Of a stretch of DNA of 64,000 nt, positions 6,088-56,778 are shown one piece after another. The position numbers and the translations under genes were made by a program. The stretch comes from an uncultured delta proteobacterium (GTDB taxonomy: Bacteria; Myxococcota; Myxococcia; Myxococcales; Anaeromyxobacteraceae). The notes under the pieces were generated by a model. That model did no database searches. It was not told the DNA's origin and saw nothing but the letters and a program-made list of their open reading frames with translations. The stretch is taken from positions 352,001 through 416,000 of the forward strand of contig CAWFDF010000014.1 of NCBI GenBank assembly GCA_963814585.1, written 5' to 3'. Numbering within the stretch: position 1 is the stretch's first letter; the number at the start of each line of letters is the position of its first letter.

Positions 6088-9000
6088 ATGGCCCGGGCTG
6101 CCACCATGCTGGCCGCCCTGCTCTCGTCCCCGCCCGCGGGCGCGGCGGTCACGCTCCGTCACCAGCTCGACCTGCGCGGCGACTTCAGGCTCTTCGGCAA
6201 CACCCTGGCGCAGGATTGGGCCAGCGGCGTGGTGCCTCCGGCGGTCGGCTCGCTCTGCACCACCGGGGGAGGCGGCACCTGCGGCGGCAACACCACCGAC
6301 TCGGGCGCCGACGTCTTCTGGCGCGCCGACCCGGCCGCCGGCACGGCCGCCTGCAGCTCGACCATCACCGCGGCGGCGGCCCGCTCGGTCTCGATGCTCC
6401 AGCTTCCGGCCGGCGCGGTCGTGAAGTACGCGCGGCTCTACTGGTCCGGCTACGTCTCCAGCAACGCCTTCGATCCGACGGCCACCCTCACCACGCCGGA
6501 CGGCTCGGCACACCCGGTGGCCGCCGACGTCGGCTGGACCCTCGCCACGGCCGTCGACAACGGCCGCTGGTGGTACCAGTCCAGCGCCGAGGTCACGGCG
6601 CTGCTGCAGGCGCTCCCCGCCGCGCCCGGGGCTTACCTGGTCTCCGACGTCGACTCGATCCCGCTCGCTGGCGTCAACTCCGAGGTCGCCTTCACCGGCT
6701 GGTGGGCGGTGGTCTTCTACGAGGATCCGGCCGAGATCACGCTCCGCAACCTGACGCTCTTCGACGGCTTCGAGGGGGTCTCCAGCGGCGCGGCCGCCAC
6801 GGCGACGCTGGCCGGCTTCCGGGTCCCGGGCGGCGGCTTCGACGCCAAGCTGGGCGTGGTGGCCTGGGAGGGCGACTCGAACGTGACGGGAGACCAGCTC
6901 AAGTTCAAGGGCTACACCGCTCCGGACGCACCACCCGCCACGCTGGTCAACCTCACCGACGCGCTCAACCCGGCCACCAACTTCTTCAACCGATCGCGCA
7001 GCCAGCTGGGCGTGGCCGTGAGCGTGGCGGGCGACCTGCCGCAGACCACCGGCGCGGCCGCCTCCCTGTCGGGGATGGATCTCGACGTGGTGGACCTGAA
7101 GGCCAACGGCGCCATCGTGGCCGGCAACGACTCGGCCACCATCTCCGCCACCTCCAGCGGCGACGTCTACGTGCTGGGCGGCTTCGTCACCTCCGTCTCC
7201 ACGCTCAGGCCCGACTTCGCCGCGACGGTGAAGTCGGTCGCCAACGTCGACCGGACCGGCGCCACGCTGGCCGGGGACCGGCTCGAGTACACCGTCACCG
7301 CGCGCAACGCCGGCAACGACCCCTCGATCCAGACCGTGCTGGTGGACGCGCTGCCGCCGGGCGTGACGCTGGTGCCCGGGTCGATCCGGATCGCCAGCGG
7401 CGCCAACCCCGGAGGGAAGTCCGAGGCGGCCGGCGACGACCAGGCCGACTACGACGACGCCGCTCGCACCCTGACGGTGCGGCTCGGCGCCGGCGCCACC
7501 GCCTTCGTGGGCGGCAGCCTGGCCATCGGCGAGTCGACCGTGGTGGTCTTCCGCGTCACCGTCGACGCCGGCGCCGCCGGGACCATCGACAACCTGGCCT
7601 CGGTGACGGCGGCGGGCCAGAGCGGCGAGCCCAGCGCCGGCTTCCCGACGCAGCCGCCGTCCGGTGGCGGTGGCGCCACCAGCCAGGTGATCGACGCGTG
7701 CATCACCGACGCCTCGTGCGGCGGGGCCACGCCGGCCTGCGACGTGGCGCCGGCGCCCAACCTCTGCGTGGCCTGCACCGCCGACGCCCACTGCGGCGGC
7801 ACGACGCCGGTCTGCGATCTCGCCGGCCGCGCCTGCGTGGGTCGTACCGCGGTGCTGCCAGCGTCCCAGGAGAGGCCCGCCGCACCCGGCCTGGCCGTCC
7901 CCTTCGAGCTGGAGGTGCGGAGCGCCCTCACGGCGTCCGAGCGGTACGACCTCGACGTCCTCGACGGCGGCTGCGCCGCGGCCGTCGAGCTGCGCGACGG
8001 CGCCGGGCAGGTGCTGGCGGCTCGCGACGCCTCGGGGAGCTGGACCATGGCGGCCGGGAACGACACCGACGGCGACGGCCGGCCCGAGCTGGCGGCCCCC
8101 TCCCAGGGGACCGTCCCCTTCACGCTCCGGCTCTCGCAGGCGGCCGGCGCCGCCATGGGAGACCGCTGCCAGGCGCAGGTGGTGGCCACCGGGTTCACCA
8201 CCGGTGCGGCCGATCCGGCCCAGGTCGCCGTGCGCGCCGCCGCCGCCGTCACCTTCACGCCCGATCGGACCGGCCCGGACGCGCTGGCCGTGATCACCGG
8301 CGGCACGGTCGCCTTCGCCGGCGTGATCCGGAACAGCGGCGCCGCCGAGTCCGCCTTCTCGCTCGCCGCCACCGTCACCGCCACCCCCTCGGCCGGCACG
8401 CTGGCCGCCGCCCAGTTCTGGTCGGACCCGGACGGTGACGGCAGCCCGGCGGACGGCGCGCCCATCACCGTGACCGGGCCGGTGGCGCCGTTCGGCGGCG
8501 CCGTCCCCGTGGTGCTGGTGGTCCGGGCCAGCGCGGCCAGCGGCGCGCCGCTGGACAACGGCACGATGCTGGCCACGTCGGCCACCGCCACGGCCTCGGT
8601 CGGCGGCGCCGGCGCGACGCAGCTGGGCCAGGCCTGGGTGGGCTGGATCGCGCCGTCGTCGGAGGCGGCCTTCGCGACCACCAGCCAGGTCTTCGCCCCC
8701 TGCCAGACCGTCCACGTCCGGGCCCAGCGGCTGCCACTCGCCGACGGCTACGCGCTGGAGTGGTACGCGGGCGGCGCGCCGGTCCGAGGCACCGACCAGC
8801 CGCTCCGCGCCGTCGACCCCTGGCCGGTCACCGGAGGGAGCGCCACCGACGCCTACCCCCTTCCGGCCGGGGCGCCGGACGCCATCACCGTCCTCCTGGT
8901 GCAGCGGATCGGCGCCACCACCGCCGTGCTCGATGCCCTCCAGCTCGGCGTGGAGCGGGGCGGCGCCATCGCCGGGCTCGCCGCGCCGGCCCGCATCCCG

Positions 9001-19730: not shown

Positions 19731-19773
19731 CGCGAACTACTCTGGGTCGGGGGTTCGTGAACTACTCTGGGAC
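19731..19773 (+). repeat. Two direct copies of the AACTACTCTGGG motif
   Basis: cgcgaactactctgggtcgggg (19731-19752) and cgtgaactactctgggac (19756-19773). Confidence 0.9.
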
Positions 19774-19899
19774 AGTGAGGCGCTGATGCGCCGCCCACTC
19801 GAACCTGCTAGAAGAACTGGGTATTCCACCGGCGCCCGCCCGGACCGCCGTTCCGAAGGAGATCCGGAGGGCCTCGGCGACGACCATCGTGACCCGCGG

Positions 19900-21517: not shown

Positions 21518-21591
21518 TTCTCCAATCTTTCCAGAGCGCTGCGCGCCTGCTGCCGCGGCTACGGGTCACGTTGGCTTGGCCAGGGATGCAC

Positions 21592-23418
21592 ATGTCGAAG
21601 ACCATCCTCCTCATCGAGAACGACGCGCCCTTCGCCGAGGAGATCTCAGGCGGGCTGGAGGCGATGGGCTACCTGGTGCGTGTCGTCGGCGACGGCAAGG
21701 ACGGGCTCGACCTGGCGAAGGACCTGAACCCCGACGCCATCGTGCTCTGCGTCGAGCTCCCGAAGCTGTCCGGCTACTCGATCTGCAACAAGCTCAAGAG
21801 GGACGACGCCCTCAAGGCGATCCCGCTGGTCCTCACCAGCTCGGAGGCCACCGAGGAGGTCTTCGAGGACCACAAGAAGCTGAAGGTCCGGGCCGAGGCC
21901 TACCTGATCAAGCCCTACGTGTCGGCAGCGCTGGTGGAGAAGCTGGCGGCCCTGATCGGCATGCCCGAGGCCGGCGCGGCGGTGGCTCCCGTGGCCCGTG
22001 CCGTGGAGCTGGACCTCGAAGGCGGTGACGAGGAGGTGGTGAGCCTCGAGGAGGAGCTGGCCCTGGAATCGTTCGCCGGCGAGCCGGGACAGGAGCTGCC
22101 AGCGCTCGATCTCGACTCCCTCCCGGACGAGCCAGCCGCGGTCGCGACGGGCGGCGGTCTCGACGACGACCTGAAGCTCCTCGACGACGCCTTCGACGGC
22201 CTCTCGGCACCTCCCGAGGCCCCGCCCCCTCTCCCTTCGGCCCAGGCTCCGGCGCCTCCGGAGGTCGCCACGGGCGTGGATGCCAGGATCGCCGGTGAGG
22301 CGATCGAGAAGGCCCTGGGTGTCGACCGGCCGGTCACGTCCGAGGACCTCGAGGCCGCCTCGGCCTCGCTCCCAGAGGACCACGAGGCCGGCGCGAGCGG
22401 CGACCTGGGCAACCTGGCAGAAGAGGCCGACCTGGCGCTCGGTGCGCTGGAAGACGATCCGCAACGTGCGGCCACGTCGGCGTTCGACGCCCTCGACGCC
22501 CTCGACGAGCCGGTGGAGGCTCCTCCACGGTCCGCTCCGTTCGCTCCAGCCGCCTCGCTGGCCGCAGAAGCGCCTCCGGGCATGGTGACGCTCGCCCCCC
22601 CCGCCGCAGGAGGCCTGGACTCCAGCAGGATGACGGCGGCACCTGGCGTCGGCGTGCACGGGCTGGCGCGGCTGGAGAGCGAGCTGGCCGAGCAGCGCGC
22701 CGCCCTCCTCGCCCGCGACGCCGAGCTGCGCGCCCTGCGGACGAAGCTGGAGGCGTCGGCCCGGCGCGCCGACGAGGCCGCAGCGGCGCTGGACGGGAGA
22801 GAGGCGGAGGCGGCCTCGCTGAAGGCGCGTGTGGAGTCCCTGGCAGCGCAGGTGACCGCGATCGATGCCGAAGCCAAGGCGCTGCGAGAGGAGGCGCGGC
22901 GGGCCACCGAACAGGTCCGCGAGGCCACCTTGCGTGCCGAGAGGGCGGAAGCCAGGCTGACCAGTGCCGAGGGACTGGTCTCGGCGGTCGAGAGCCGCTG
23001 CCGCGCTGCCGAGCAGGAGGCCGCCTCGCAGCGGAAGGCCGCCGAGCAGTCGGCCGTGGCGCTGGCCTCCAGGGCGGCGGAGCTGGCTTCGGCCCAGGCG
23101 TCTGCCGCTCGGCTGGCGGAGGTGGAGCGAGAGGTCGAACGCCTCGAGACCGAGCTGGTCGTCGCTCGCGGCGAGGTGGAAGGAGCCCGCTCGGAGGTGG
23201 AGAGGCGGGCCGTCGACCTGAAGCGCCGCGTCGCTGAGCTCGAGGCGGCCAACTCGAGGAATGAAGAACGGGTCGTCAAGGCGTACTTGAAGATCAAGGG
23301 CGACGAGAAGGTGCGCGACAAGGCCCGGAAGGCATTGGCCATCGCGCTTCAACTGCTGGAGGAGGGGTTGCCGGCGGAGCCGACCGGAGAGAAGCGTCCC
23401 CGCCCCGACCCAGAGTAG
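21592..23418 (+). CDS. frzS: FrzS-like pseudo-receiver / acidic linker / coiled-coil motility regulator
   Basis: Receiver lacks the acceptor Asp (IVLCVEL); GYSICNKLKRDDALK...HKKLKVRAEAYLIKP; long coiled coil; C-terminal IKGDEKVRDKARKALAIA; follows the ECF/anti-sigma pair as recalled for Myxococcus. Confidence 0.7.
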   Translation: MSKTILLIENDAPFAEEISGGLEAMGYLVRVVGDGKDGLDLAKDLNPDAIVLCVELPKLSGYSICNKLKRDDALKAIPLVLTSSEATEEVFEDHKKLKVRAEAYLIKPYVSAALVEKLAALIGMPEAGAAVAPVARAVELDLEGGDEEVVSLEEELALESFAGEPGQELPALDLDSLPDEPAAVATGGGLDDDLKLLDDAFDGLSAPPEAPPPLPSAQAPAPPEVATGVDARIAGEAIEKALGVDRPVTSEDLEAASASLPEDHEAGASGDLGNLAEEADLALGALEDDPQRAATSAFDALDALDEPVEAPPRSAPFAPAASLAAEAPPGMVTLAPPAAGGLDSSRMTAAPGVGVHGLARLESELAEQRAALLARDAELRALRTKLEASARRADEAAAALDGREAEAASLKARVESLAAQVTAIDAEAKALREEARRATEQVREATLRAERAEARLTSAEGLVSAVESRCRAAEQEAASQRKAAEQSAVALASRAAELASAQASAARLAEVEREVERLETELVVARGEVEGARSEVERRAVDLKRRVAELEAANSRNEERVVKAYLKIKGDEKVRDKARKALAIALQLLEEGLPAEPTGEKRPRPDPE

Positions 23419-23501
23419 TTTGGCGGACCAGGGGACGGGGGGCGGACCTGGGCAGGGGCCCGGGGTGGGCGCAAGTGGCTGGAATCCGGTGGTGAGGTGG
23501 G

Positions 23502-23516
23502 TGGCACGGGGCGTGC
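23502..23516 (+). promoter_or_regulatory. Possible sigma54 -24/-12 site before the HUH gene
   Basis: TGGCACGGGGCGTGC (GG-N10-GC), 15 nt before ATG 23532; also forms a GCACG-GGG-CGTGC hairpin. Confidence 0.4.
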
Positions 23517-23531
23517 GATTCAGCCTGGGCC

Positions 23532-24434
23532 ATGACCGCGCCGCGCCAGATCCTTCCGGGAGGTTCCTACCTCGTCTCGCGCCGCTGCACGCAGCGACAG
23601 TTCCTGCTGCGGCCCTGTCAGGACACCACCCAGCTGTTCGGCTACCTCCTCGCGGTCGCCGCCGAGCGCTTCCACGTCGACGTCCACGCCGTCTGCGTGA
23701 TGTCCAATCACGTTCACCTTGTCGTCACCGATCCCGAGGCTCGGCTCCCCGCCTTCACCCGGTACCTCGACTCCCTGGTGGCCCGAGCCATGAACCCTCG
23801 GCTGGGCAGGTCGGAGAGCTTCTGGGCGCCGTCGAGATCCAGCGTGGTGGCGCTGCAGACCCCGGCGGACATCCTCGGCAAGGTCGCCTACGTGCTCGCC
23901 AATCCGGTCGCGGCCGGCCTGGTCCGGCGCGGGCGGCTCTGGCCAGGGCTGTGGTCCGCCCCGGCGCAGCTGGGCGCCGCGGCCATCGAGTTCAGGCGCC
24001 CCGGCTGGTTCTTCAGGAAGAAGGGGAAGACCGCGCTCCCCGGCGTGGCCAGGCTCCGACTCGTGACGCCCCCGGGGCTCGGCTCGGTGGAGGACTTCCG
24101 CCGGGAGGTGGTCTCCGCGCTCCAGGCCATCGAGAGGCAGGCGGCGGCGGACCTGGCCACGGCCCACCGCGAGTTCCTCGGCGTCCGGCGCGTGCAGGCC
24201 CAGTCGCCGTTCGGGACGCCGCCCCGCTCCGAACCCCGGCGGGGGCTCAACCCGCGCATCGCCTGCCGTGACCCCGAGAAGCGCATCCAGGCGCTGCAGC
24301 AGCTTGTGGCCTTCCTTCGGGACTACCGCCGCGCCTTCCAGCGCTGGCGGGAGCGCGCCGCTTCCGTGGTCTTCCCCCACGGCACCTACCTGATGCGCGT
24401 CCTCCACGGCGCCACCTGCGCCGCCCCCGGCTGA
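23532..24434 (+). CDS. HUH (Y1) endonuclease/transposase, REP-associated tyrosine transposase (RAYT)-like, with long C-terminal extension
   Basis: YLVSRRC, HUH motif VMSNHVHLVV, catalytic-Tyr motif AYVLANPVAAGLV; no tnpB nearby. Confidence 0.88.
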   Translation: MTAPRQILPGGSYLVSRRCTQRQFLLRPCQDTTQLFGYLLAVAAERFHVDVHAVCVMSNHVHLVVTDPEARLPAFTRYLDSLVARAMNPRLGRSESFWAPSRSSVVALQTPADILGKVAYVLANPVAAGLVRRGRLWPGLWSAPAQLGAAAIEFRRPGWFFRKKGKTALPGVARLRLVTPPGLGSVEDFRREVVSALQAIERQAAADLATAHREFLGVRRVQAQSPFGTPPRSEPRRGLNPRIACRDPEKRIQALQQLVAFLRDYRRAFQRWRERAASVVFPHGTYLMRVLHGATCAAPG

Positions 24435-24656
24435 GCCGGCACCCGCGCCACTCCTCCCCCTCGATGACCCCCGCGAGTGCGCTGCCTCGCCTCGGCGAAT
24501 CCTCGCCTCCCGCCCCCACTTCGAGCTTCAGCCGGCCCCCGGAACTCCCCGACGATGCCGATCTCCTGGCCTGGTCGCCTCCTCAGGGCGTCCGCGCCAC
24601 CGCCTGGCACGCCCCAGGTGAGCCCATCCGCTTCATGACCGCCACGGGGAGCCGAA

Positions 24657-26225
<1,569 letters not shown>

Positions 26226-54977: not shown

Positions 54978-55201
54978 GGACTACTCTGGGACCCGTGTCC
55001 GGCCTGACCTCTCGAACTACTCTGCTCTCGAACTACTCTGGGTCGGTAGGCTGTAGGCTGTAGGTACTCGAAACACTCTGGGTCTGGCAGGCGGGGACTG
55101 GTCAACGCGAATTACTCTGGGCGCGAACTACTCTGGGTCTGGTAGGCGCGAACTACTCTGGGTCTGGCAGGCGGGTAGGCAGGTAGGCAGAACTACTGTG
55201 G
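54978..55201 (+). repeat. Disordered array of about 8 direct copies of CGCGAACTACTCTGGGTCTGG(C/T)AGG plus GTAGG fragments
   Basis: Copies at 54978, 55013, 55029, 55069, 55106, 55122, 55147 and 55190, interspersed with ctgtagg x2 and cgggtagg/caggtagg. Confidence 0.92.
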
Positions 55202-55425
55202 AATTGGCATATGATGGGACCGGTAAGAGGGGACTGGAATGCGGACTGGCATGCGGGGGACGCGCCGGACGGCCCTCGCCGCACCGCGCAATGATTGCCG
55301 CGTCGCGTCGTCAGAATTGCGCGGCCTCAATTGAGTCGTGTGCTACCTTGCCTCCCCCCCCCATCCCGGGGTCCGTATCCGCATTCACCCCGGGACAACC
55401 TGCTCCAAGTTTCCGGAGGAAGTGA

Positions 55426-56778
55426 ATGACCGCATCGAAGACGCTCCTGGCCGGCCTGCTGGCCCTGTCGCTCCCGCTCGCCGCCATCGCCCAGACCGCC
55501 CCCGCAGCAGCCGCCGCGCCCGCCCCGGCTGCGGCCCCGGCCGCTGCCCCCGCAGCCGCTCCGGCCGCCGACGGCGTGAAGTTCACGCCGTACGGCTTCC
55601 TCCTGGCCAACGCCTTCTTCACCGGCAACTCGCTCACCGACCAGGACTACCCGGGCTCGGCCGTGGCCGCGGCCAAGGGCGGCTCGATCCTCTTCAGCGC
55701 CCGCCAGTCGCGCCTCGGCTTCAGGCTCGCCGGCAAGGAGGACCTGACGGGGTCCGACCTGACCGGCGTGGTCGAGTTCGACTTCAGCGCCGGGCACGCT
55801 CCCGGGAACCCGACCTGCACCTACAACCCGGGCCCTCCCGTCTCGATCACCTGCACCCAGGGGGCCGCGGCCTCCACCGGCTGGTACAACGCCCTGGTCC
55901 GGCTCCGGGTGGCCTCGATGACCGCCAGCTGGAAGACCGGCGCCGGCAACTTCTCGGTCCTGGCCGGCCAGGACGTCGGCATCGTCAACACCCTCTTCGC
56001 CGAGAGCATCGCCTGGGTGGCCAAGCCGCTCTTCTGGCAGTCCGGCAACCTCTGGCGCCGCTCGCCGCAGTTCCGGGTGTCCTACGCCAACACCTTCGGT
56101 GACTTCGGCGTGAGCGCGGCCGTGGCCGTGCTCTCGCCGGCCACCACCCAGGTCGGCACCTCGGTCCCGGCCACCGCCCCCAACCCGGACTTCGGCGCCG
56201 GCAACCAGTCGCGCATGCCCAACGTCGAGGCCCGCCTGGCCGGCACCGCCAAGTTCGGCGACGGCCTCACGGCCGCGGTCGGCCTCGGCTACCACCAGAA
56301 CACCCGCCGCCTCGCCTACGGCACCGTCAACCAGCAGGACGTGGACGGCAACCTGTTCGGCGTCGACGTCGACCTCGGCCTGACCAAGTACCTCCAGGTG
56401 AAGGGCGAGTACTACACGGGCAAGGGCTCGGACGACACCTACAACGCCATCGGCGCCTCCACCTACGGCGCCGCCGGCGCCGTCGAGCCGCTCGAGTCGT
56501 CGGGCTACTGGGCCCAGGCGATCATCAAGCCGCTCCCCTGGGTCTGGGTCACCGCGGGGCTCGGCCACGCCGAGGCCGACAAGACCAACTCGGCGGCCAG
56601 CGCCCGCATCGGCAACGACCAGCTGGCCGGCGGCGTGATCATCAACGCCGGCAAGGCCTGGCGCTTCGGCATCGAGTACGCCCAGGTGGAGTCCGAGTAC
56701 CGCGGCGCCACCGCCGCCGCGGCGACCACCAAGCAGGACGCCACCCAGATCGGCGTCTCGTCGATGTTGAGGTTCTAG
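55426..56778 (+). CDS. Outer-membrane beta-barrel porin (DcaP-like)
   Basis: Signal peptide plus Ala/Pro linker, FTPYGF, SARQSRLGF, GVVEFDF, amphipathic strands, terminal Phe. Confidence 0.75.
   Translation: MTASKTLLAGLLALSLPLAAIAQTAPAAAAAPAPAAAPAAAPAAAPAADGVKFTPYGFLLANAFFTGNSLTDQDYPGSAVAAAKGGSILFSARQSRLGFRLAGKEDLTGSDLTGVVEFDFSAGHAPGNPTCTYNPGPPVSITCTQGAAASTGWYNALVRLRVASMTASWKTGAGNFSVLAGQDVGIVNTLFAESIAWVAKPLFWQSGNLWRRSPQFRVSYANTFGDFGVSAAVAVLSPATTQVGTSVPATAPNPDFGAGNQSRMPNVEARLAGTAKFGDGLTAAVGLGYHQNTRRLAYGTVNQQDVDGNLFGVDVDLGLTKYLQVKGEYYTGKGSDDTYNAIGASTYGAAGAVEPLESSGYWAQAIIKPLPWVWVTAGLGHAEADKTNSAASARIGNDQLAGGVIINAGKAWRFGIEYAQVESEYRGATAAAATTKQDATQIGVSSMLRF

Follow-up and report, generated by a model that had tools for sequence, protein, structure and literature searches.

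The DNA analysed here is a stretch of 64,000 nt (the window; coordinates are positions in it unless a genome and contig are given) from a genome, G000, which named relatives group with Anaeromyxobacter-like Myxococcota. At 23397..24672 on the + strand it contains a 1,276-bp element that encodes a HUH transposase of the RAYT class and is closed at both ends by the same short motif in inverted orientation. We are highly confident that this is a mobile element bounded by terminal inverted repeats (TIRs). Comparison of sequences among relatives shows it to be multi-copy and reveals empty sites, partial copies anchored on the ends, solo motifs of the same variant as the elements resident in their genome, motif copies lying in frame in adjacent genes of the host and, at shared loci of related species, elements of differing variants. 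We lean, by a small margin over even chances, towards an account in which one activity of the enzyme, strand transfer from one end with a variable stopping point, would generate all of these products.

The limits of the element are set by a second copy on another contig (G000:C8:452970-454245), 100% identical over the 1,276 bp and surrounded by unrelated genes. An assembly artefact could be ruled out since both left junctions are found in contigs of a public sequencing run (X5, which may be the source sample of G000); contigs of runs X1 and X6 break at 23397 and 24672. The same genome holds two paralogues (58% and 55% amino-acid identity, contigs C9 and C10) and two end-only remnants, and the gene is thus not the stand-alone one that a first, sequence-only reading of this DNA had taken it for. 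The two identical copies indicate a recent duplication of a multi-copy element, and in the relative G088 six copies are 98–99.8% identical. Elements are matched in 63 of the 92 genomes of the family, at 1–15 per genome, and are absent from 29, with none in the 14 genomes of one genus. The junction between a frzS-like gene and murJ, where the element of the window resides, is unoccupied in G080, G086 and G089, and all seven G088 and G091 insertion sites that can be mapped to G000 are empty and motif-free there. No fixed target-site duplication was seen across 11 junction comparisons, with one locus (L114, taken up below) as the sole exception, and no full-length relative was found in 72,556 plasmids or 50,697 phages. 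Element ends tend to lie near gene ends: 73 of 112 are in, or at most 150 bp from, the 3′ end of an inward-pointing gene and 17 provide its stop codon, counts that come from a crude caller of open reading frames (ORFs) without a null model.

This distribution bears on the possibility of domestication, in which a RAYT/REP-like system (REP, repetitive extragenic palindrome) or DNA-binding regulator would have been retained because it serves the host, its binding sites having arisen close to the gene through point mutation and selection. Long occupation of the same loci in several species would fit such a role, as would a conserved sigma-54-type promoter that suggests regulated expression and a dN/dS of 0.36–0.59, i.e., below 1. 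The recent identical duplication, the accumulation of up to 15 matches in a genome and the absence from 29 of 92 genomes, an entire genus among them, do not fit it, and we regard domestication as improbable.

The transposase ORF (23532..24434, + strand) encodes 300 aa and, as first described, carries the motifs NHVHL (H60, H62) and YVLANP (Y120) and lies between convergent genes. The distance from the HUH motif to the tyrosine is 60 residues (H60-V61-H62 to Y120-N124-P125), inside the 58–67 that defines class 2 TnpA-Y1 proteins. All 119 aligned homologues (the full-length ones among the 150 best matches, plus the query) share H60, Y120 and N124, and 686 representative proteins match the transposase at E <= 1e-30. 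Profile matches are weak: Pfam Y1_Tnp scores 24.6 bits, just above its cut-off, and the NCBIfam models REP_Tyr_transpos (53 bits, cut-off 80) and IS200 (21.5 bits, cut-off 55) both stay under theirs. The predicted structure (pLDDT 96.7, pTM 0.94) finds its best fold match in Escherichia coli TnpA-REP, PDB 4ER8 (Z 14.8, root-mean-square deviation 2.6, 153 aligned residues), with IS608 TnpA at Z 9.0. The model thus bears out the proposal of a RAYT-like protein and points to a RAYT-class HUH enzyme with the TnpA-REP fold. This TnpA-REP-like core (about residues 1–140) is followed by a family-specific C-terminal part of 155 residues that has no match in Pfam, Foldseek or a named Atlas cluster; no Pfam helix-turn-helix (HTH) domain (Bac_DnaA_C, HTH_23, HTH_28-like) is detected in the 119 members at E 0.01. 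Modelled alone, the C-terminal part forms long helices with a pTM of just 0.37, and this poor folding suggests that it packs against the core. In a tree of 62 core domains, built without an IS200 outgroup and with E. coli RayT on a long branch, the Myxococcota proteins of about 300 aa form a separate clade (support 100/96), sister at weak support (82/64) to YIELNP/WSS proteins, two of which, of the YIELNP type, have classical GGGG[AT]CAG inverted repeats.

Two other groups of proteins came to light alongside this family. At four Verrucomicrobiota loci (L043, L047, L067, L073) a RAYT-like domain continues in frame into another coding sequence, which looks like the C-terminal part of cobalamin-dependent methionine synthase, so that a transposase appears to be embedded in a housekeeping gene. 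Ten loci (L014-L016, L018, L019, L023, L027, L034, L072, L300) encode a tight clade of cyanobacterial Y1 proteins of about 250 aa (NHVH, YIH[AG]NP) with no obvious flanking inverted repeats.

The end motif is 17 bp long, with the conserved core ACTCT[CG]GG[AT]CnGG on the outward-reading strand. In the window it occupies 23403..23424 (− strand) at the left and 24651..24672 (+ strand, inverted relative to the left) at the right, and the 21-bp inverted repeats reported by the sequence-only reading are real, with 18 of 21 positions identical between 23404-23424 and 24651-24671. Across the family the left motif lies about 100–115 bp 5′ of the start codon and the inverted right motif 159–261 bp 3′ of the stop in 50 of 51 arms; the motif was found in 42 of 45 left and in all 51 right non-redundant arms examined, the set of right arms being one outside which fall the G000 paralogue on C9 and locus L137, both without a right end. 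The motif had been described as containing GTAG, which proved to be present at just 10 of 39 left and 14 of 51 right ends, the others having GTAA, GTTC, GTAC or GAAG. An exact GGGGWSAS is found at none of 90 ends, and the related GG[AT]CnGG core reads outward here and inward in the TIR of L299. Folding offers little sign of a hairpin: the two window ends and a solo motif fold like their shuffles (z +0.6, +1.5 and −0.4). Some relatives have a palindrome inside the left end, and a median z of −1.3 over 39 elements, with no stem in a fixed register, leaves room for a weak left-end hairpin; a conserved left-end stem with covariation was considered and rejected because no register is fixed. The ends are a repeat of the TIR type rather than the REP type.

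Between gene and right end lies a non-coding right arm (24435..24650) that shows no conservation between variants. Right arms have no enriched 6-mer (51 arms) and no helical periodicity in the right-end distance at 10–10.5 bp. The idea that they are captured host DNA was dropped, since they have no meaningful match in G000 save for L137, whose flank is livF itself. That locus (G085:C114:~7800-8070), an element at livF, has its first 58 codons replaced by an unrelated coding sequence and has no right arm. Three other loci, L224 (G000:C9:151396-153798), L291 and L295, have no right end of their own and show a right-orientation motif in the next intergenic gap, 1.4–1.7 kb away; the host gene enclosed between such ends could be mobilisable. 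At L161 (G091:C4:~136000) and L164 (G083:C23:~176100) the frzS-like gene is joined through an element or remnant to a thioredoxin/DsbA-like gene, not to murJ. These junctions are chromosomal rearrangements between two element sites, so that element ends also mark rearrangements.

The end motif also occurs without the gene. Within the window, nine sites lie within one mismatch of a 12-mer, against 0.05 expected from shuffled sequence, and the ten additional copies reported at the outset are confirmed at up to two mismatches in 10 (19735, 19760 and eight at 54979-55191). Over the 4.3 Mb of G000, 28 sites score at least 21 bits where the reversed genome has none, and 40 sites in 32 clusters score at least 17 bits against four in the reversed genome. 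An exact 13-mer averages 14.7 occurrences in the 63 genomes with the gene and 1.0 in the 29 without it (reversed controls 1.0 and 1.6). The motif is thus enriched genome-wide, homologues do carry it in inverted orientation at their flanks, and it is far from equally common in relatives that lack the gene. The lack of a conserved GTAG foot or stem and the number of sites, only ~40 in 4.3 Mb, count further against domestication.

The extra copies in the window form two groups on the + strand. Two solo motifs in direct repeat (19735..19776) have a radical-SAM gene on one side and an ECF-type sigma gene on the other; this site also bears motifs in G088 and G091 and has none in nine other genus members. 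A mosaic direct array of about eight copies with small internal duplications (54979..55207) lies downstream of mutS2; at this site G088 has two copies and G091, G085, G083, G087 and G084 have none. Other motifs in G000 are genuine element remnants. Under the main rival explanation of the family, an ordinary TIR-bounded unit would move as a whole, solos would be eroded remnants or resemble miniature inverted-repeat transposable elements, and homogenisation, arrays and patches would come from host recombination, slippage and conversion at a fragile, protein-bound site. Sites that retain just one or both ends of an element present in full in relatives (G000 on C4 and C12; G083 at frzS) and short microhomologies at duplication junctions speak for such whole-unit movement, which would also account for the arrays. 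At the two solo sites of the window, however, it meets a difficulty, as no element was found at either in the 11 relatives examined for each, and we rejected the notion that these solos are scars of lost elements.

Solos match the variant of their own genome's resident elements. Of the 13 solo clusters in each of the closed genomes G001 and G002, 10 and 11, respectively, are at most 50 kb from an element, where about one is expected. Inverted doublets 100–200 bp apart are common in these two genomes, and their spacers match the element arms over the motif only, which again counts against whole-unit movement. The first proposal, that the motif accumulates as direct arrays rather than doublets, is therefore not supported as worded: the motif does spread without the gene and often as direct arrays, but inverted doublets are common in G001 and G002. 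After a peptidase gene in G000 (G000:C9:153781-153830) a solo is followed about 36 nt further on by a partial inverted copy in the start of the next gene, and similar short fold-back copies occur in L284; snap-back synthesis is a possible source, and such copies could seed hairpins. Most solos of G000 are on the + strand of their contigs, and on C9, C11 and C14 nearly all are. Replication direction was tried as a determinant of solo orientation and set aside, as local GC skew gives no consistent explanation.

Longer fragments start or finish at the ends of the element. At three loci, picked for visible partial ORFs, units that extend from the left outer edge inward for about 25, 41, 95, 214, 437 and 491 nt stand head to tail before an intact copy, and one 73-nt unit finishes at the right outer edge. 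The far flanks of 59 elements contain 41 further motif matches; 38 of these point outward, many of them within arrays of partial copies.

The motif is also found inside coding sequences next to elements. Among 30 livF orthologues, the best out of 74 genomes that have a match, five have an element or end motif directly 3′, and in four of these the gene itself scores 22.4, 24.1, 24.3 and 14.3 bits; the other 25 score at most 7.0 bits. In these four, the outward-oriented motif is located within the coding region, at either or both of two sites. A peptidase gene scores 17.7 and 15.7 bits in both genomes with an adjoining element and at most 7.2 bits in the other 10 of 12, whereas only 4 of 2,141 background coding segments reach 15 bits. 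Patches preserve gene length even where they replace amino acids, their codons are rare in the host (AGA 0.7% of Arg, AGT 1.1% of Ser, GTA 1.5% of Val; overall 0.7–6.7%), and the G091 patch corresponds to the right-end variant found in G091 itself. One livF patch site is common to G085 and G088, which are not sisters in a three-gene host tree, so at least two patch events in livF are likely. G088 has a further in-frame case in its thioredoxin/DsbA-like gene, and G000 has one at the start of a gene. These comparisons suggest that the enzyme likely writes in-frame copies of its motif into genes beside the element. In a conserved ABC-ATPase gene, six substitutions that match the motif fall within 17 nt, most of them giving rare codons that end in A/T; they are difficult to explain by point mutation and selection for a host function. 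As for conversion by host recombination, patches of ~17 nt with little prior identity are below what RecA-dependent conversion usually needs.

Another feature of the family is the turnover of variants at fixed loci. The sites of elements or remnants coincide among G000, G088 and G091; at the six sites of the G088 sister copies, G000 has two full elements, two clear remnants, one degenerate motif and, in one case, nothing (G085 has a full element there). Sister ORFs are 98–100% identical in nucleotide sequence within each of the three genomes and only 71–76% between genomes at the same loci, where host genes are 88–89% alike. Element dS (0.49–0.74) is about twice that of the host (0.25–0.36), an excess that counts against ordinary whole-unit movement with host recombination, but the estimate is crude (NG86, two host genes, 73% GC) and our reading is the weaker for it. 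Among the G088 sisters, identity extends from the left end to 63–85 nt beyond the stop codon, after which they continue in unrelated right arms of equal length; they have also recombined, with all four combinations at two sites of single-nucleotide polymorphism (SNP). Divergent variants are found at the same loci in related species, each of them homogenised inside a given genome. Neither this turnover nor the in-frame copies, nor the promoter described below, had been noticed in the sequence-only reading.

One-ended strand transfer with a variable stop is the simplest single process that covers all four product classes, and the full mechanism, each enzymatic step of which we infer by comparing sequences, is the account that we narrowly prefer. 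The protein would bind the motif, probably helped by its C-terminal part, nick the DNA likely just outside the 17-bp motif and become linked to the 5′ phosphate through Y120, as HUH chemistry would predict; the inward-reading strand would be transferred and copied inward for a variable length. Events of ~17–25 nt would leave solos, tandem arrays and in-register patches at near-matches in genes, where selection tolerates them, and stops after hundreds of bases would leave partial copies. Longer events from the left end (~1.1 kb) would overwrite a resident copy, resulting in homogenisation and in new variants taking old sites. A complete pass would create a new insertion with no fixed duplication of the target, in most cases at the 3′ end of a gene. 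HUH enzymes in general nick one strand and hold its 5′ end on the tyrosine, and the free 3′-OH primes synthesis or attacks the link; in the material available to us, in vitro cleavage and strand transfer are described for REP-associated RAYT groups only (PMC8266576).

Several observations weigh against this mechanism. The outer breakpoint of partial copies is imprecise, 3–20 nt outside the core, with no shared cleavage dinucleotide seen. Clustering of solos near elements is non-significant in G000 (4 of 24, with 2.2 expected), G003 (1 of 9) and G006 (0 of 8) and borderline in G091 (4 of 11, p about 0.05), and G001 and G002, which show it best, are close kin; indeed, related genomes are non-independent in the motif counts and in the other comparisons across genomes. 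No in-frame motif is present in the 3′ part of 12 frzS-like genes, four of them with an element; livF of G084 lacks the motif (0.3 bits) despite an adjoining element or end motif, and so does the G091 orthologue of the thioredoxin/DsbA-like gene. At L114 (G088:C18:~151700 and ~153060) the insertion is bracketed by a 33-bp direct repeat of host DNA. The SNP mosaics of G088 fit ordinary homologous gene conversion equally well, and movement of whole units combined with host recombination accounts for these mosaics and for homogenisation. Given the solo sites that are free of elements, the doublet spacers, the short patches and the dS excess, we nevertheless consider it rather unlikely.

Expression of the transposase would, under the one-ended mechanism, come from a predicted sigma-54-type promoter, with an activator bound at the left end. 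In the window the −24/−12 box (23502..23517, + strand) stands 15 nt 5′ of the start codon and 96 bp from the left motif core. In 44 of 45 non-redundant elements a box of the form GGCACG-N5-TGC ends 13–16 nt 5′ of the start codon, and a score of at least 9 of 12 against the sigma-54 consensus is reached by 41 of 45 elements and by 41 of 3,165 host genes. No match to a sigma-70 promoter was found in the element. The 42 measured distances from box to left motif fall mainly into two classes, 84–88 bp (23 elements) and 95–98 bp (16), with none at 89–94 bp; two classes one helical turn apart would be an enhancer-like geometry, and the position of the box would imply a nearly leaderless transcript. 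This spacing is the argument for supposing that a host sigma-54 activator, which the element exploits for its own promoter, uses the motif as its enhancer, solos being other sites of that activator and the HUH enzyme recognising something else. Under that supposition it would be difficult to see why the same motif closes the right end in 51 of 51 arms, why it drops to background in genomes without the gene and why solos follow the variant of the resident element. The inner left-end boxes (23424..23448, + strand), of the GGAC/GTCC type, are better enhancer candidates with the same phasing; they are about one helical turn apart in relatives and degenerate here, without a stable hairpin. An enhancer role for the motif is accordingly the least probable of the explanations that we weighed, and a very improbable one.

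The element had been presented as the best candidate for an undescribed system. However, RAYT-like genes flanked by non-REP TIRs were named TIRYTs, and the units TIRtrons, in 2013, and their TIR families are moderately abundant as singles, dimers and groups (Di Nocera et al., 2013, PMC3733652). As far as the accessible parts of that source go, our element shares with them a Y...NP enzyme, non-GTAG TIRs at a conserved distance from the gene and dispersed TIR copies; it fits the broad TIRtron/TIRYT definition, which is the closest known kind. Most TIRYTs are assigned to TnpA-Y1 subclass 2.1, with a C-terminal HTH and the consensus GGGG[AT][CG]A[CG], in the sections consulted of Quentin et al. 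(2018, PMC6006769). The present family differs in having no GGGGWSAS, the opposite core orientation relative to L299, no Pfam HTH and a 155-aa C-terminal part of its own, as well as in forming its own clade (100/96) with much higher identity among copies within a genome. In-frame patches, variant turnover, end-anchored partial copies and a sigma-54-type promoter were not found in the passages on TIRtrons and RAYTs available to us. A literature search returned no paper on this family in Anaeromyxobacter and none on a sigma-54 promoter for RAYTs. Likewise, a search by term of the supplements of PMC6006769 and PMC3733652 gave no match to Anaeromyxobacter or Myxococc, while figures, some supplements and the sequence lists of PMC5581495 fell outside that search and may include members.

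Compared to REPtrons (TnpA-REP/RAYT with GTAG REPs, as in E. coli and in subclasses 2.2, 2.4, 2.5, 2.7 and 2.8), the family has the fold in common and a short cognate repeat that is dispersed without the gene, concentrated at gene 3′ ends, sometimes in frame and sometimes in inverted doublets. It differs in that neither a GTAG foot nor a hairpin is conserved, copies number in the tens instead of the hundreds and the gene itself duplicates. Intragenic, in-frame REPs have been described, according to the text consulted (PMC3733652), but REPs are inserted, whereas the copies inside genes here replace a near-matching stretch at unchanged length. Among RAYTs, Group 1, with which TIRYTs have likewise mostly been equated, is reported in the part of the paper at hand to be the most similar to insertion sequences, with the highest duplication rate (6.3%) and ~12 copies of flanking 16-mers per replicon (Bertels et al., 2017, PMC5581495). 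The IS200/IS605 TnpA proteins (subclass 1.1) share the Y1 HUH core and the occurrence of multiple, near-identical copies; in contrast, our element has Y...NP rather than Y...Q, 300 aa, terminal inverted motifs instead of subterminal hairpins, no tnpB and the lower fold score already given (Z 9.0). Subclass 2.3 also has long proteins (median 325 aa), several copies per genome and no REPs, but its HUH-to-Tyr distance is ~110, with a 55-aa insertion (60 here), its NHYH and YVDLNP motifs are absent here and its hosts are others, to judge from the excerpts used (PMC6006769). The IS91 transposase is larger and of the Y2 type. For the proposed mechanism IS91 is nonetheless the closest precedent, with HUH chemistry, no target-site duplication and one-ended events in which termination failed; its two ends are unlike (oriIS and terIS), without TIRs, and its target is a tetranucleotide, in the portion of the source that we used (PMC13181058), whereas here the same motif stands at both ends and partial copies end inside the element.

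The element of the window is fused to the 3′ ends of both neighbouring genes, which converge on it: a receiver-domain/coiled-coil gene at 21571-23418 (+ strand; Pfam Response_reg) and murJ (− strand; Pfam MurJ, 1e-103). The earlier naming of murJ is thus confirmed by Pfam, while the name FrzS, given to the other gene by the sequence-only reading, has no counterpart among the 25 best NCBIfam matches shown for its product. Both genes terminate on a TAG within the inverted repeats (23416-23418 in the left motif; 24657-24659 on the complement of the right motif for murJ), and the last codons of both proteins, including the essential MurJ, are element-derived. Selection may lock in element ends that serve as stops of neighbouring genes. 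The TAG and TAA variants of the motif both preserve the stop codon. A terminator-like stem (24023-24041, − strand) lies antisense within the transposase ORF and could halt read-through from murJ. Elsewhere in the window, 55426-56778 encodes a conserved secreted protein of 450 aa with no Pfam match, probably a porin; a branched-chain amino-acid ABC operon follows it, and the DNA upstream of the gene contains the motif array.

How repeats of RAYT-class enzymes are created and spread is an open question, and TIRtrons have been proposed as a window on the origin of REPs, a proposal left untested in the part of the source that we consulted (PMC3733652). A broader and more tentative proposal, which we think possible though doubtful, is that the enzyme acts both as a short-patch DNA writer and as a homing recombinase. 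Near-matches to the 17-bp motif would be rewritten to the consensus at constant length, even in essential genes, resident motifs would serve as landing pads for an incoming variant that overwrites all old copies, and solos and doublets would be REP-like repeats caught at birth. The family offers defined substrates (a 17-bp motif, its orientation and a likely nick zone), natural products that range from a single motif to a whole element and, in the conversion of a near-cognate site, a simple readout. If the patches are made by the enzyme, they would amount to templated short-patch editing by a 300-aa HUH protein, and to a transposon that alters the sequences and C-termini of its host's proteins.

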